DNA of 32,000 bases, taken from positions 2,400,001 through 2,432,000 of the forward strand of contig CP178758.1 of the NCBI GenBank assembly GCA_047651235.1. The letters run 5' to 3'. The first letter of the stretch is position 1. Each line of letters starts with the position of its first letter. Source of the stretch: Candidatus Electrothrix yaqonensis (lineage in GTDB: Bacteria > Desulfobacterota > Desulfobulbia > Desulfobulbales > Desulfobulbaceae). Made by a program: the position numbers and the translations under genes. The notes beneath the pieces were generated by a model. It made no database searches and had not been told where the DNA came from. It saw nothing but the letters and a program-made list of their open reading frames with translations. Below, one piece after another: positions 15,995 through 20,879 of the stretch.

Positions 15995-16214
15995 AAAAAG
16001 AATCCTCTATCAATCCAATTTTTTGGAAAAGGGCGAAAAAAATAAACTGTCACCAGCCGGAAGCTGGCGGGTCGAATTTCGGTCGGTCGGACCTGCCGAA
16101 GATTGAACGGCAAAAAAAGGATACCACGTTTTATGCGCAGCCCAAAGGAATAAACAGCCTTGCTGCAGGGCTGCGGGGAACAGGAGTTCTGTCGCGTCCT
16201 GTCAACAGGGCCGG

Positions 16215-17939
16215 TCATGTCTTTTCACGCAGCACAGTGCGCCGCCAGATTTCAAAGGTCACCAGCATCCAGAGAATCTGTTCATGCCGGGGCAGGGTCT
16301 GTTCCGGCGGAAGATTGAGCAGCTCTCTGACCCTATCCGGGTTGAAGATCCCTGCCTGCTTGATTTCCCGCCTGCCCAGGAATCTGCGGACATAGCTCCG
16401 CAATGCTCTGCGGAAGTCTGACTGCCTGAAAAGCTGCAGGCCGCTATCCTGCCGGTCAGCAAATTCTTGGGGCAGAATATTTTTGTATGCCTGCCGCAGG
16501 ATAATTTTATCCGTTCCCTGACGCAGCTTCAGAGTAGAAGGCATACGGAAGCTCAATCTGATCAACCGGTCATCAAACAGAGGCGACAGAGAATTCAGGC
16601 CGTGCACCCCGGTCATTCTCTCCGTTTTGGGCAGGATCATATTGCCGCCCCGCAGACGGATATTGACGGCACTGAGCTTATCAAGAAAGTTTTCCGGCCG
16701 CTCGGCCTCGAAAAACGGGGTCAGGATGCCTTCAAGAGCTTCGTGGGAGTTGTACAGGCTGCGCCATTCCGGGGTGAGCAGATTGTTCAGCTCGTCATAT
16801 GCTCCGAAGCAGGAGGAAAGATATGTCCGCTCACGAAAAAAACGCCCCTGCTTTATGCCGCCATACCAATGCCGCAGCAGAATCGGGATATTGTCCGCAC
16901 CACCGAAAACCGGAGAGGCTCCGGCCCCGTTCACCACATACTCCACCTCCCCAGCAGCCGCAGCCGACAGCATGTACTCGAACACAGCCGAAGGATCAGC
17001 AACCGGCTCGTTCAACGCATGAATAACATCCTGTACACGGGCCAGAAATTCCTTGGGCTGTACGGAAATTTCCCGATGGTCACTGCCGATGTGTTCAGCA
17101 AGGTCAGCAACGGACCGACTTTGTCCGTGCGGATTTCCGGGGGGATCGCCCACCCTGATCGACCAGCTGGGAAGTTTTTTGCCGCATTGCCGTATGACCT
17201 CTGCAGAAACAATGCCGGAGCCCGGTCCACCGGAAAAAAACAGGCCGACAGAGCCTGATTCCGGCAGCTGATCTCTGACCGCCTGTTCATGAATATGAAC
17301 AAATTCATCCATCCATGCCTGCTCGTCCTTTTCCTCTTTTTCCTCTTCTTCTACAGAGAAAAAACAACGGGGCGGTTCCACACGGCCGTTGGCAAAGGTC
17401 ACTGTATGCCCCGGGGGCAGTTCCCAGAGATTTTCCAGCATGGTTTCCCGGCCCGGTATAAAACCGAAGGAAAAATACTGTGCTACTGCTGCCGGCCGCA
17501 GATTGCGGGCAAAACCGGACCAAGCCAGCACGCCCTTGGGTTCAACGGCAAAAATAAAACGGTCATTATAAAAGCCATAGTAAATGGTCCGTATTCCGGC
17601 AGGATCCCGGGCAAGATGAATACGGTCTTCGTCCAGTACGGCAAGCACATAGGCACCGTGCAGGTTCCGGACAAAATCCAGCCCTTGGTCCCGGTAACTG
17701 CGGAGCAGCTTGGCCATACGGGTCTCTTTTTTATCCGTGAAAAGCCGTCCAGCAAGAGCGATTACCTGGCCGCAATGTTCGATAATGCCGCCATGATGCG
17801 AGCGGGACGGCAGCCAGCATGCTGTTGAGCGGATTGAGGCGTGGGTCCGGGCCGGGGGAATGCCCCGATGGCTGAGTGCAGCAGCCATTGCCCGATTTTT
17901 TTTACCGCTCCAGCCGGAAAAACCAAAAATTGCCCCCAT
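16215..17939 (-). CDS. asparagine synthetase B-fold protein with degenerate glutaminase and PP-loop motifs (probable pseudoenzyme or repurposed fold)
   Basis: Collinear with AsnB (ARDPAGIRTIYYG, FSGGPGSG, NGAGASPVFGG). The N-terminus is MGAIFG rather than MCGI, SGGPGS replaces SGGxDS, and GAGASP replaces GEGSDE. Its start overlaps the upstream stop as TGATG. Confidence 0.75.
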   Translation of the reverse strand: MGAIFGFSGWSGKKNRAMAAALSHRGIPPARTHASIRSTACWLPSRSHHGGIIEHCGQVIALAGRLFTDKKETRMAKLLRSYRDQGLDFVRNLHGAYVLAVLDEDRIHLARDPAGIRTIYYGFYNDRFIFAVEPKGVLAWSGFARNLRPAAVAQYFSFGFIPGRETMLENLWELPPGHTVTFANGRVEPPRCFFSVEEEEKEEKDEQAWMDEFVHIHEQAVRDQLPESGSVGLFFSGGPGSGIVSAEVIRQCGKKLPSWSIRVGDPPGNPHGQSRSVADLAEHIGSDHREISVQPKEFLARVQDVIHALNEPVADPSAVFEYMLSAAAAGEVEYVVNGAGASPVFGGADNIPILLRHWYGGIKQGRFFRERTYLSSCFGAYDELNNLLTPEWRSLYNSHEALEGILTPFFEAERPENFLDKLSAVNIRLRGGNMILPKTERMTGVHGLNSLSPLFDDRLIRLSFRMPSTLKLRQGTDKIILRQAYKNILPQEFADRQDSGLQLFRQSDFRRALRSYVRRFLGRREIKQAGIFNPDRVRELLNLPPEQTLPRHEQILWMLVTFEIWRRTVLREKT

Positions 17940-19000
17940 CAGATTTCCTCGCTGTTTTTTCTGCTCCCGAAGAAACGCCCCGGCGCAGCAGAGACCCTGT
18001 CAAACATCACGTCAACCCTGTCAGCAAACGGTTTTTTCTCTTTTCTTTCAGCAGCCCATCTGTCCAGCACGTCCTCCAGCGGGATGTTTTCCATCATTGC
18101 GGCAGCGCACAGTGCCGCCAGCACAGGATAGGGAATAATATCCAGAGGTCCTTTGTATTCCTTTCTGTGCAGCTGCAGGGGTGTCAGGCAGGAAAGTTTT
18201 TCCAGATGCTCCGGCTTGATGCCGAGATCAATGACCGGGCGTCCGGGCAACTTGATTTTGCGGTGCATTACCCGGCCTGTCTCAGTTGCGTCGTGCAGCA
18301 GATACACAGGCAGAGCGGCATTTTCTGCAAGCAGATTTTTTGCCTTCCGGGAAATGGAGCGCGGATAACCGTTCCGGCAGAACACAAGAGCCTTCTGATC
18401 AGCATGAAACCCGTTCTTCACCAGCAGATCCACCAGAAGCGGACGTTCCGTAATAATGATCCGTTCCACGCCATAGTCAAAGATATCTTTTTCCGGAAAG
18501 TCCAAAGGCGGTTCATCCAACGAGGGCTGCACCAGCATCATATCCGGAACCCCGTTTTCCTCGTGCCATCTTCTGACCATCTTTTTCAGTGCGTCTAAAT
18601 CCGGCGGCATCCGGCGGCGGTATGTTCTGATCAGCCACCAGAGGACCACAACCGGCAGCAGCGTGGCGGGCAGCGCGGCTGGCCATCCGAAAAGGAAAAA
18701 AAGCAGCACCGTCACAGCCGACAGGACAGCACCGGCAGCAGCGAGCCGTACCGAGAGGCGGAAACGACGTTCTTTATCTTTCTGTCTGCACCAGGCGCCG
18801 TACAACTGCGGAAAGGTAAAACAGCAGCGTCCGTTGTCTCCGGCCTGCCGGATAAGACAAAGAAATCTTTCGTCTGTCATGCCGTGTGCGGTCCGGGGAT
18901 GAAAAGTAAACCGATAGCCGCAGCTACAGCGCATCCCGGTTATTTTTTTCTGCTTCTGCTTAATTCCGCATCTGGGGCATCTCATGTGGCTCTCTTTCAC
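17939..19000 (-). CDS. hypothetical membrane protein: N-terminal zinc ribbon, TM hairpin, and a C-terminal domain resembling a Spo11/TopoVI-A/JetD-type Toprim
   Basis: CPRCG-x14-CSCG forms the zinc ribbon. There are two hydrophobic helices (aa ~85-125). The C-terminal pattern is RIIITERP...ALVFCRNGYP...LPVYLLHDATETG. No family name can be assigned without a search. Confidence 0.6.
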   Translation of the reverse strand: MKESHMRCPRCGIKQKQKKITGMRCSCGYRFTFHPRTAHGMTDERFLCLIRQAGDNGRCCFTFPQLYGAWCRQKDKERRFRLSVRLAAAGAVLSAVTVLLFFLFGWPAALPATLLPVVVLWWLIRTYRRRMPPDLDALKKMVRRWHEENGVPDMMLVQPSLDEPPLDFPEKDIFDYGVERIIITERPLLVDLLVKNGFHADQKALVFCRNGYPRSISRKAKNLLAENAALPVYLLHDATETGRVMHRKIKLPGRPVIDLGIKPEHLEKLSCLTPLQLHRKEYKGPLDIIPYPVLAALCAAAMMENIPLEDVLDRWAAERKEKKPFADRVDVMFDRVSAAPGRFFGSRKNSEEI

Positions 19001-19324
19001 TTTTTCGCTTCAGCACATTTCAATATTCAAGATATTCGGTTCGCATTCGGTTGCTGTTCGATTCAGCAACAGGAGACAGCGAGGCTCCAATATAAAAAAT
19101 CTGCGGTAATTGTCCAGCGTTTCGTGAGGATAAAACCGCATACAAAACCGGATTCAATTATTATGTTCCGGTGTACCTGCCGGATGCATCCTGAAACGAT
19201 CTTGTCCGGGGTCTATGTTTTTCTATTTTTCTATGAATCTCTCTGCAATTTGTGTTATATATAGAAATAAATAATTTGGGCACCTGAGTTATGATTGAAT
19301 AAAATATTGATACAAGAGGAAAAG

Positions 19325-19846
19325 ATGTATAAAACCCCGTTGCTTGTAGGTCTGCTGGCTGTAGTCGGTTTTGTCTCACCCTGTAGCGCCCAGACTCCTC
19401 CGCCTCCGCCGAAAGATGTGGATGTGGATATGATGGCGAGGGAATACCGGGATGCTCCTGTCGGTGCAGGCGCGTTGACCAAGGAAATGATCGAGGCGTG
19501 TGTCCGTCTGAAGATTGATCTGGAAAAAGACGATGCCGAGCTGGATGCTCTCAGAGAGAAGGTGAAGAAACTCAATGATGAAGTCAAACATCTCGGAGCA
19601 TACCTGAAGAACAATAAGGGCCAGTTTGATGAGAACGACACCAGTGCGGCCCGTAGGGAGTATCAGGCCAAGGTCAAAGAGTATAATTCCAGAATTCCCC
19701 TGCTCAAGGAACTGACCCAGTCCTATGGAGACATGCTCAAACCGTATAAGGACAAAGAGGGCAAGTTTGAACAGGAGTGCAATAGTCAGCCGTATTACGA
19801 GGATGATTACAAAGAGATAGAGGAAAAGCTGGGCCGCGGCATGTAA
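19325..19846 (+). CDS. secreted coiled-coil protein, paralogue A (unknown family)
   Basis: SD gaggaaaag lies before ATG 19325. The signal peptide is [22 protein letters not shown]. Heptad-like K/E-rich core. Its stop overlaps the dut start (TAATG). It shares blocks with 20361..20879. Confidence 0.65.
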
Positions 19847-20322
19847 TGCGGACAGAAATTCAGTCTGCCCAGCAGATAGAAGTTCCTTTCCGCTGGCTTG
19901 ATCCCGGACAATGCCGGGATCTCTCCCTACCCGGTTACACAACTGCGCAGGCTGCGGGTATGGATGCGGCAGCGGCTGTCAGTGAAGATACAATGCTGCA
20001 CCCGGGGGAGATTAAACTGTTCCCGACCGGGTTCGCTGTTGCACTACCGGACGGTTTTGAAATGCAGGTACGCCCCCGGTCCGGACTGGCGGTAAAGCAC
20101 GGAATCACTGTTGTCAATGCACCGGGAACCATTGATGCCGACTATCGGGGAGAGATCAGGATTGCTTTGATCAACCTCGGCAGTTCCCCGTATACTGTCC
20201 GGCGGGGTGACCGTATTGCCCAGCTCGTCTTGGCGCCGGTCTGTCAGGCCCGGCTGCGGCCGGTCGCTGAACTGGAGGAGACCGTGCGGGGCGACGGCGG
20301 CTTCGGGCACACGGGCATGTAG
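19846..20322 (+). CDS. dut: dUTP diphosphatase
   Basis: The dUTPase motifs are present: [30 protein letters not shown] and [10 protein letters not shown]. Confidence 0.95.
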
Positions 20323-20360: not shown

Positions 20361-20879
20361 ATGCGAACAACAACCTTGTCTCTGACTCTGGCGGCGGCTG
20401 TCGCTCTGACTGCTGCACCCTATGCTGCGGAAAAGGCTTCAGCAGAGGGCCTGAGTGCTGACGTCAAAAAGTCGGAACGCACATATCGGAAAATTCCGGC
20501 CGGTGCCGGTGCGCTGACCAAAAGTATGATCGAGTCCTGTATTGCGCTGAAAACCGAGATCGATAATGACTATAAAGAAATAACCGAGCTTAAGCAGCAG
20601 TTTGACGCTCTTGCTGAGGAAGTGAGCAAGCTGGGAAATGAGTTGCAGGCAAATAAAGACAACGTTGGCGGCAGCAGCGAGTCTCTTGTTGAATACAACA
20701 AAAAAGTTGAATCGTACAACAGCAAGATTGAAGAGTTGAAAAAACTGGAACAGGCATACAATACAAACACGACACCGTACCGGAAAAAGGCTGCCAGGCT
20801 GAAGCAGGAATGTGATGGTCAGCCGTATTATGAAGATGACTATGCCGAAGTCGTCAAAAAAGTAGGTCGAGGTCTGTAG
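20361..20879 (+). CDS. secreted coiled-coil protein, paralogue B (unknown family)
   Basis: The signal peptide is MRTTTLSLTLAAAVALTAAPYA. It shares YR..P.GAGALTK.MIE.C..LK and [11 protein letters not shown]...K.GRG[ML] with paralogue A. Confidence 0.65.
   Translation: MRTTTLSLTLAAAVALTAAPYAAEKASAEGLSADVKKSERTYRKIPAGAGALTKSMIESCIALKTEIDNDYKEITELKQQFDALAEEVSKLGNELQANKDNVGGSSESLVEYNKKVESYNSKIEELKKLEQAYNTNTTPYRKKAARLKQECDGQPYYEDDYAEVVKKVGRGL

Follow-up and report, generated by a model that had tools for sequence, protein, structure and literature searches.

A membrane-anchored zinc-ribbon protein with a TopoVI-A/Spo11-type Toprim-like domain and its AsnB-like partner in Candidatus Electrothrix yaqonensis

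Described here is a pair of overlapping genes in a 32,000-nucleotide stretch of the genome of the cable bacterium Candidatus Electrothrix yaqonensis (contig CP178758.1, positions 2,400,001 to 2,432,000), the whole of which is referred to below as the window. The first gene encodes a zinc-ribbon protein with a predicted membrane hairpin and a C-terminal domain resembling the Toprim domain of topoisomerase VI subunit A (TopoVI-A) and Spo11. The second encodes an AsnB-like protein. Listed in Table 1 are the features of the pair and of the surrounding DNA. The open reading frame (ORF) on which the initial annotation was based, 17939..19000 on the minus strand, is present in the window and codes for 353 residues from a mechanical start at GTG 19000. 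Translation almost certainly begins at ATG 18985, which corresponds to Met 6 of that frame, because the consensus of the homologous family opens with MxCPxC, the NCBI protein from Candidatus Electrothrix sp. YB6 (P0001, 100% identical to the window protein) is called at 348 residues, and a Shine-Dalgarno-like GAGAG motif lies 4 nucleotides 5' of the ATG. The frame thus stands, and the protein itself is probably 348 rather than 353 residues long. The TGA stop codon of the gene overlaps the ATG of the AsnB-like ORF as TGATG, with the A shared, which argues for translational coupling of the two genes. A promoter match on the 5' side of the pair and terminator-like hairpins on the 3' side suggest a two-gene operon.

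Table 1. Features of the gene pair and of its surroundings (window positions; residues numbered in the 353-residue frame).
Feature	Position	Strand	Basis and remarks
Zinc-ribbon/transmembrane-hairpin/Toprim-like gene	17939..18985	-	ORF, NCBI call, family consensus, Shine-Dalgarno-like motif
C4 zinc ribbon C8, C11, C25, C27 (CPxC-x13-CxC)	18917..18979	-	Cys conservation; two short β-hairpins in AlphaFold2 model
N-terminal helical module GMTDxKF...YFTxxQLY	18776..18898	-	Consensus and conservation; D43, T62 and Q65 nearly invariant
Two-helix membrane hairpin, residues 82-126	18623..18757	-	Unbroken hydrophobic stretch, AlphaFold2 model; predicted N-in/C-in
Cytoplasmic linker helix and PSLxxPP...E-x-D-I-Y-D-Y-G-V-E lead-in to strand 1	18464..18598	-	Consensus, conservation
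Toprim-like core	18215..18463	-	PF21180, PDB profile match 2zbk, Foldseek TopoVI-A, conservation
C-terminal helical subdomain, residues 263-330	18011..18214	-	AlphaFold2 models, conservation; nearly invariant D287 inside
Disordered C-terminal tail	17942..18010	-	pLDDT below 50; remnant ...GRFFG plus eight-residue extension
AsnB-like gene, 574 residues	16215..17939	-	ORF, profile matches, motif alignment
Sigma-70-like promoter match TGGACA-16-TATATT	19089..19116	-	Consensus match only; 5' of gene pair
Three terminator-like hairpins	16051..16166	-	Consensus match only; 3' of AsnB-like gene
M16 insulinase-like peptidase, 971 residues	13079-15994	-	
Secreted coiled-coil protein	19295-19846	+	
dUTPase	19846-20322		
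Secreted coiled-coil protein	20361-20879	+	
Multihaem cytochrome/truncated-haemoglobin protein, 638 residues	23087-25003	+	PF13435, PF01152

The ligands of the zinc ribbon are arranged as C8-P-R-C11-G, 12 residues, and C25-S-C27-G, and all four cysteines are kept in the 68 of 68 homologues that cover the region. The ribbon had been recognized in the initial annotation, with a spacer of 14 residues; the ribbon holds, and the spacer after G12 is corrected to 12. Together with the helical module that follows, it appears to behave as an autonomous, repeatable unit, since four to five such zinc-ribbon and helical modules are arranged in tandem in a 715-residue homologue (P0194), ahead of a degenerate Toprim-like domain with GFLCQPK in place of LLHDAT. 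The hydrophobic stretch between residues 82 and 126 contains a central G-W-P turn and is flanked by six Lys or Arg residues on either side. Under the positive-inside rule these flanks place both ends of the hairpin, and hence both soluble parts of the protein, in the cytoplasm, a topology that agrees with the one first proposed. Within the cytoplasmic lead-in to the C-terminal domain, P165, D172, Y176, G177 and E179 are invariant or nearly so. The full-length AlphaFold2 model, built with an alignment of 42 sequences, has a mean predicted local distance difference test score (pLDDT) of 88.3 and a predicted template modelling score of 0.86. It displays long helices at residues 63-104 and 106-128, followed by a C-terminal domain with strands at 180-184, 204-208, 232-235 and 256-258 and then a helical subdomain. 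The tail is disordered from residue 331.

The strand and motif order of a Spo11-type Toprim domain had been read into the C-terminal segment from the sequence, and all of its motifs are found at the spacing then given: RIIITER (residues 180-186), GYP (211-213), LPVY (230-233) and HDATETG (236-242), mapping to nucleotides 18275-18463. In the core, strand β1 (180-184) is followed by E185, GYP occupies residues 211-213, β3 (232-235) leads into H236-D237-A-T239, and β4 (256-258) carries D258-L-G260. These motifs align residue for residue with VVEK, GQP, LPVYIL and TDADPYG of Sulfolobus TopoVI-A. By itself, the window protein matches the Pfam model PF21180 (TOP6A-Spo11_Toprim) with an E-value of 3.5e-4 and 21.1 bits, under the gathering threshold of 24.1, and PDB entry 2zbk_A with an E-value of 0.006; the NCBIfam TopoVI-A equivalogs are matched weakly. 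When 42 homologues were scanned singly, 38 matched PF21180, the best with an E-value of 7.3e-10, and no other Toprim, JetD_C or DUF2399 Pfam model was matched by these homologues or by the window protein. A family profile finds TopoVI-A 2zbk_A with an E-value of 2.2e-4, pairing IVER with VVEK, GYP with GQP, and LPVYLLHDAT with LPVYILTDAD.

Fold searches with Foldseek against the PDB agree with the profiles. TopoVI-A chains occupy ranks 1-8 for the full-length model, the best match being 9o7o_A (probability 1.00, 107 columns, root-mean-square deviation (rmsd) of 3.7). For a model of the domain only (residues 135-332, pLDDT 89.2) they occupy ranks 1-6 and 8, led by 9o0g_A (E-value of 7.9e-3, probability 1.00). 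The next matches are the small Toprim protein 2fcj/2i5r, T7 primase, RNase M5 and RecR. The E-values are modest, 8e-3 to 5e-2, with a TM score of ∼0.35 over ∼100 residues. Because 38 of the 42 homologues match PF21180 independently and the fold searches agree, the likeness goes beyond chance, and on the evidence of profiles and modelled folds we judge the C-terminal domain to be a homologue of the TopoVI-A/Spo11-type Toprim domain, as its motifs had first indicated. The kinship with JetD and DUF2399 raised at the same time was not borne out. The nearest relatives are TopoVI-A proteins, no Pfam or PADLOC model of that group was matched, and no JetD or MksG structure is found among the top 50 Foldseek matches against the PDB.

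What has become of the Toprim active site can be seen from residue counts over 77 non-redundant homologues. At position 185, where a canonical Toprim domain carries its Glu after strand 1, Glu is found in 35, Gln in 19, Asp in 17 and Ala in 3. At position 239, the second Asp of the DxD motif, Thr is found in 41, Ser in 13 and Asp in 8. The window protein keeps E185 and D237 and has T239 in place of the second Asp, so that the DxD motif is degenerate, as was noted at the outset, in this protein and across the family. Replacement of the Toprim Glu by Gln is commonly used to inactivate the domain, and the TopoVI-A cryo-EM structures at the head of the fold search carry this E-to-Q change. The natural Gln at position 185 equals that substitution. 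Other positions are fixed: D172, G177, D191, N196, Y212, P213, H236 and G260 in 77 of 77, P165, Y176 and D258 in 76, D237 in 73, H199 and D287 in 72, and E179 in 70. A Tyr is present at position 215 in 74 of the homologues, where the window protein has Ser. To judge from these counts, the acidic triad that cleaves nucleic acids is unconstrained, and D172, Y176, E179, D191, N196, H199, Y212, H236-D237, D258 and D287 are fixed instead. The domain is thus probably not catalytic in the canonical sense. Several of the invariant polar residues lie at the C-terminal ends of strands in the secondary structure of the AlphaFold2 model. Toprim active sites lie at such strand ends, and for this reason a remodelled ligand, metal or catalytic pocket is possible.

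The partner displays the two-domain AsnB fold (PF00733, E-value of 5.4e-47; PF13537, E-value of 5.8e-9). In the PDB its nearest matches are the hydroxyamidotransferase 7ylz, AsnB 1ct9, human ASNS 6gq3, β-lactam synthetase 1jgt and CarA 1q15. All NCBIfam models fall far below their cut-offs, the nearest being polysaccharide- and osmolyte-type amidotransferases. The window protein opens with MGAIFG and lacks the Cys nucleophile, and no partner ORF as called among the loci analysed starts with Met-Cys. The glutamine-binding motif NGE of 1ct9 aligns to A-x-G in these partners. With both the nucleophile and NGE absent, the glutaminase half is dead throughout the family. The synthetase half is intact outside one group of Electrothrix proteins (group 1, described below), with SGGLDSS in the PP-loop, NGEGGD as the equivalent of the Escherichia coli SGEGSD that holds E348 and D351, and a basic residue at the K449 position; other Lys and Arg residues are also invariant. 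In the window protein the PP-loop reads SGGPGSG, and NGAGAS replaces NGEGGD, so that the equivalents of E348 and D351 are Ala and Ser, respectively. The changes SGGxGS, E339A, D342S, K349D/H and R379G are shared with its closest Electrothrix relatives, and the window protein has K430R and K498D in addition. Judged by these residues, the AsnB-like protein of the window is a pseudoenzyme in which both halves are dead. The dead AsnB fold first proposed is thereby upheld: the glutaminase motifs are absent family-wide, and in the window copy the Asp of the PP-loop and the counterparts of E348 and D351 are missing too.

An exhaustive profile search for the Toprim-like protein returned at least 1,288 cluster representatives (50% identity) at E-values of 1e-3 or below, 565 of them at 1e-30 or below. 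Nearly all members are ∼320 residues long and share the same architecture. A scan of GTDB species genomes gave 72 loci, the majority in Planctomycetota and the others in Verrucomicrobiales, Myxococcota, Bacteroidota (Saprospiraceae, Microscillaceae and Aureispira) and Electrothrix, with single loci in metagenome-assembled genomes (MAGs) of Armatimonadia, Aminicenantes, Spirochaetota and Nitrospiraceae. Among the cultured carriers are Stieleria magnilauensis, Aeoliella straminimaris, Rhodopirellula sp. SM50 and Roseibacillus ishigakijimensis. The genes are chromosomal, in one or two copies per genome. Synteny is conserved within Electrothrix. Orthologues are only ∼57% identical, a divergence at which synonymous sites are saturated.

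With locally built hidden Markov models (HMMs), 72 of 83 loci were found to have an AsnB-like gene no more than ∼1 kb from the Toprim-like one, and overall some 85-90% of loci carry such a neighbour. It lies almost always downstream on the same strand, in at least eight phyla, and the co-occurrence that the initial annotation had proposed to test is thus strong. De novo clustering of neighbours, which covered 79 loci, likewise recovers the AsnB-like gene in ∼73. It further reveals an upstream cupin of ∼243 residues in 28, a tetratricopeptide repeat (TPR) protein of ∼150 residues encoded between the two genes in 26, and an SSF sodium:solute symporter in 10, spread over several phyla, with nothing else recurrent in these loci. 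The cupin has an HxH...H metal motif, and searches with it gave generic cupin matches only, without a functional clue. The TPR protein resembles YbgF/CpoB and BamD. A hydrophobic N-terminal segment, mostly with a lipobox, is present in 25 of the 26, and it is therefore predicted to be periplasmic. A natural fusion of the whole Toprim-like protein, an extra transmembrane segment and a CpoB/BamD-like TPR domain is seen in a 467-residue homologue (P0133), which supports, at the level of predicted architecture, a complex spanning the inner membrane. Binding of the C-terminal tail by the TPR protein in the manner of a carboxylate clamp was considered and rejected, the former being cytoplasmic and the latter periplasmic by the signal peptides or lipoboxes of the 25 and by the extra transmembrane segment of P0133.

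A joined ORF was also encountered in a Verrucomicrobiales MAG (locus L063, 5728-8382), where 884 residues comprise a Toprim-like protein truncated after strand 4 and an AsnB-like protein beginning at HMM position 88. With one gene lacking its end and the other its first 87 HMM positions, this ORF has the look of a deletion or of an assembly artefact, and it was not counted as Rosetta-stone evidence.

Beyond these recurrent neighbours the flanks vary and consist mostly of housekeeping genes, among them those for HisG, transketolase, tRNA synthetases, GlnE and RecA. PADLOC gave no match at an E-value of 1 or below for either window protein, and neither SMC-like nor JetABC neighbours were seen in the loci examined. 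These variable, mostly housekeeping flanks show no defence-island signal, although no systematic survey of enrichment was made, and the location in defence islands that had been envisaged finds no support in them or in the empty PADLOC search. In light of the unconserved E...DxD residues, the absence of a 5Y-CAP domain, and the lack of defence models or context, the Toprim-like protein is judged not to be a Spo11- or JetD-type nuclease.

In nearly all homologues the C-terminus is a disordered stretch rich in Asp, Ser and Gly that closes with [S/D/G]-[F/Y]-G-COOH. The exceptions are the Electrothrix subgroup of the window, two Verrucomicrobial proteins, and the joined ORF of L063. The two Verrucomicrobiales proteins (L059 and L078, the latter two loci including that of Roseibacillus ishigakijimensis) have tails ending in ...DGDGE-COOH, and their AsnB partners keep all catalytic residues. 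In Electrothrix two paralogous modules are present. Those of group 2 (for example, P0035 at locus L010) have the YG tip, the TPR gene, the SSF gene and a catalytically intact AsnB partner. At the group-2 loci L010, L016, L017 and L018 the Toprim-like gene is convergent with the TPR-AsnB pair, and the SSF symporter gene lies divergently upstream. In group 1, which comprises the window and loci L006, L011-L014 and L019, the [F/Y]-G tip and the TPR gene are lost, as are the catalytic residues of AsnB (checked in all except L019). When the loci analysed are sorted by tail and partner, an [F/Y/W]-G tip goes with an intact AsnB in 58 cases and a degenerate one in none, and absence of the tip with an intact AsnB in 1 (L063) and a degenerate one in 6. 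As the co-loss lies within a single clade and amounts to one evolutionary event, this pattern is suggestive rather than statistical evidence for a link between the tail and the chemistry of AsnB, although it is the best clue to such a link. Every family-invariant residue of the Toprim-like domain is retained in the window protein, which argues against a pseudogene in decay. The matches of the homologue search included no group-2 protein of strain YB6, which hints, though weakly, that the dead pair has no canonical counterpart in that genome.

Several other genes of the window deserve mention. Directly downstream of the AsnB-like gene, past the terminator-like hairpins, lies the gene for a secreted M16 insulinase-like peptidase, which is not conserved beside the module in other genomes, E. 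communis included. Upstream are genes for two paralogous, secreted coiled-coil proteins of ∼175 residues, both ending in ...GRG[ML] and having no Pfam match, that flank a dUTPase gene; the same trio occurs beside the module in E. communis (L006, 5891-7628). Farther on, the 638-residue protein combines a signal peptide, a multihaem cytochrome region (Cytochrome_C554, E-value of 1.8e-10, several CxxCH motifs) and a C-terminal truncated-haemoglobin domain (Bac_globin, E-value of 9.8e-18). It is an unusual haem-haem fusion in a cable bacterium.

On the basis of these observations, we propose that the Toprim-like protein is anchored in the inner membrane by its hairpin, with the zinc-ribbon module and the C-terminal domain facing the cytoplasm, and that it would form a membrane-associated complex with the AsnB-like protein. 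It would be the obligate partner of a glutaminase-less AsnB-family enzyme of the PP-loop, carboxylate-adenylating kind, and most likely serves as the membrane-bound platform, substrate or regulator of that enzyme rather than as a nuclease or defence effector. In the ancestral form the flexible acidic [F/Y]-G-COOH tail would be delivered to the carboxylate-adenylating site, where it may be the carboxylate that is adenylated and then either amidated or ligated, or else a tethered tip for docking. From the other face of the membrane, the module would often be joined by a CpoB/BamD-like TPR lipoprotein of the periplasm. The window paralogue, having lost tail tip, TPR gene and AsnB catalysis, would probably be kept with its partner as a scaffold or regulator. 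Taken as a whole, this picture, in which a former TopoVI-A Toprim domain anchored by a hairpin partners a glutaminase-less AsnB and presents its tail in the ancestral form, with the pair of the window being non-catalytic, is given about an even chance of being correct.

A number of observations weigh against it. The ∼ten invariant polar residues are many for a pure scaffold and could point to a novel site of catalysis or ligand binding. Position 185 is Glu, Gln or Asp in 92% of the homologues, and with D237 kept in 95% and D258 in 99%, metal binding may persist. A few loci (L030, L032, L041, L044 and L055) have no adjacent AsnB gene. The co-loss of tail tip and AsnB catalysis, being a single event in one clade, stays anecdotal whatever the counts. 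Finally, the TPR, cupin and SSF neighbours are equally compatible with a small-molecule or envelope pathway in which the tail has no role.

The first of these points leads to the alternative that survives best, namely that the Toprim-derived domain is itself an enzyme with a remodelled site, built from the His-Asp at the end of strand 3, the Asp at the end of strand 4, the Tyr of GYP and the DYGVE lead-in. Its substrate, located at the inner membrane face, would be phosphorylated or contain a nucleotide, and the AsnB-like protein, the cupin and the SSF symporter would supply adjacent steps of a single small-molecule or envelope pathway. The location of the invariant residues at strand ends, where Toprim active sites lie, fits, as do the HxH...H cupin in 28 loci and the SSF transporter in 10. 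These genes are found in a minority of the loci only, however, and the residues match no known catalytic motif. That the window copy keeps them despite its dead AsnB partner fits an independent function without proving one. We consider this explanation unlikely, yet worth keeping in view.

Also unlikely, and ranked just after it, is a complex of envelope biogenesis, in which the hairpin protein would tether an ammonia-dependent AsnB-like amidoligase that amidates a lipid-linked precursor of peptidoglycan or polysaccharide. It would act together with the periplasmic CpoB/BamD-like TPR lipoprotein, and the tail tip would serve for docking and not as a substrate. AsnB1 and LtsA are established examples of AsnB-type enzymes that amidate peptidoglycan precursors. 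The TPR partner is exported and resembles YbgF/CpoB and BamD, the P0133 fusion spans the membrane by prediction, and polysaccharide- and osmolyte-type amidotransferases are the nearest NCBIfam models, all below their cut-offs. The known envelope amidotransferases, on the other hand, retain the Cys of the glutaminase, the conserved neighbours include no peptidoglycan or polysaccharide genes, and the need for a Toprim-derived anchor with ∼ten invariant polar residues is left unexplained.

A JetD/Wadjet-like or other Toprim nuclease effector of anti-phage or anti-plasmid defence is very improbable. Although JetD also uses the Spo11/TopoVI-A fold type, and one locus (L010) lies near a type I restriction-modification system and a nucleotidyltransferase toxin-antitoxin pair, 25% of the family naturally have Gln for the catalytic Glu, the DxD is degenerate, PADLOC returned nothing, the flanks hold mostly housekeeping genes and neither JetABC nor SMC genes, and the modules are chromosomal, at one or two copies per genome, with synteny conserved in Electrothrix. 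Equally remote is a chance or convergent likeness of a generic Rossmann-like α/β domain, which the subthreshold score of the window protein alone and the modest Foldseek E-values and TM score would allow, but which is contradicted by the PF21180 matches of 38 of 42 homologues, down to 7e-10, with their motifs in register, and by the TopoVI-A chains at ranks 1-8 (full-length) and 1-6 and 8 (domain), followed by other Toprim proteins.

Returning to the proposed complex of Toprim-like and AsnB-like proteins, its boldest form would be a new C-terminus-directed chemistry, in which the AsnB-type enzyme adenylates the carboxylate of the tail Gly and then amidates it or ligates it to an amine. Peptide carboxylates are precedented substrates of the AsnB-like lasso cyclases. 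This specific form is speculative, and we rate it as a long shot. Were it true, the amine might belong to a small molecule, to a lipid head group or to a protein. With an AsnB fold and a domesticated Spo11-type Toprim domain as its parts, the system would be akin to a LysW-like carrier or to ubiquitin-like conjugation, and the Electrothrix copy of the window would be a pseudoenzyme offshoot of it. LysW carriers consist of a zinc ribbon and a flexible acidic tail, the terminal carboxylate of which is ligated to an amine in an ATP-dependent manner. The likeness is one of function by analogy only: a zinc ribbon and an acidic tail are shared, and the ...DGDGE of L059 and L078 resembles the EDWGE of LysW. 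There is no homology, LysW being a soluble protein of ∼54 residues served by an ATP-grasp ligase, LysX, rather than an AsnB-like one, whereas the present family has the [F/Y]-G tip, the membrane hairpin and the Toprim-like domain. No LysW, RimK or ATP-grasp matches were found among the window proteins or the recurrent neighbours.

Comparison with other known systems brings out what is shared and what is not. Known bearers of TopoVI-A/Spo11-type Toprim domains are the type IIB topoisomerases, meiotic Spo11 and the Wadjet-type nucleases. The TopoVI-A/Spo11 Toprim domain (PF21180; 2zbk, 1d3y, 2q2e and 9o0g) is both the best sequence-profile match and the best fold match of the domain of the window, with a common α/β core and the strand-Glu, G-[YQ]-P and LPVY-L-x-D-A elements in register. 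Unlike TopoVI-A, the window protein lacks the 5Y-CAP/winged-helix domain that bears the catalytic Tyr, the matches covering the Toprim part only; it is predicted to be membrane-anchored, has a zinc-ribbon N-terminus, and belongs to a family in which the Glu is Glu, Gln or Asp and the second Asp of DxD mostly Thr or Ser. Its set of invariant residues is different, and ∼100 residues superpose with an rmsd of ∼4 Å. No gene for a GHKL B subunit, as in a type IIB topoisomerase, occurs among the neighbourhood clusters, in which the conserved neighbour is AsnB-like. JetD of Wadjet, MksG and DUF2399 likewise are bacterial Spo11-like Toprim proteins outside the topoisomerases, but the present family differs from them in having no profile match to them, no JetABC neighbours and an unconserved triad. 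RecR, a non-catalytic Toprim protein, combines a zinc-binding module with a Toprim domain used for protein or ligand interaction, and it appears, weakly, at Foldseek rank 36. No sequence relationship to it was detected, and RecR is soluble, ring-forming and engaged in DNA repair.

For the partner, the comparison is with glutaminase-less enzymes such as the lasso cyclases, β-lactam synthetase, CarA and TsnB9 (7ylz), which have the same two-domain fold without the Cys nucleophile. As in these enzymes, the partners outside the clade of the window keep the PP-loop and the equivalents of E348, D351 and K449. They differ in context, with no precursor of a ribosomally synthesized and post-translationally modified peptide (RiPP), RiPP recognition element or leader peptidase nearby, and the window copy lacks the synthetase residues. 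No description of a Toprim-AsnB module was found in full-text searches of the literature, and no curated Pfam, NCBIfam or PADLOC model covers the Toprim-like protein, in agreement with the initial annotation, which could match the pair to no named system. The novelty is that of a known Toprim fold in a new architecture and a new partnership.

This work adds to the Toprim proteins a large bacterial family in which the fold is tethered to the membrane by a predicted hairpin, the acidic triad is unconserved, and linkage to a glutaminase-less AsnB is tight. It provides a concrete, testable case of Toprim exaptation. The near-universal acidic [F/Y]-G-COOH tail hints at a possible new means of enzyme-partner coupling or of C-terminal protein modification, and the presence of the canonical module in cultured planctomycetes and in a Roseibacillus strain makes experiments feasible. 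For the cable bacteria, a conserved pair of pseudoenzyme-like genes has been identified.

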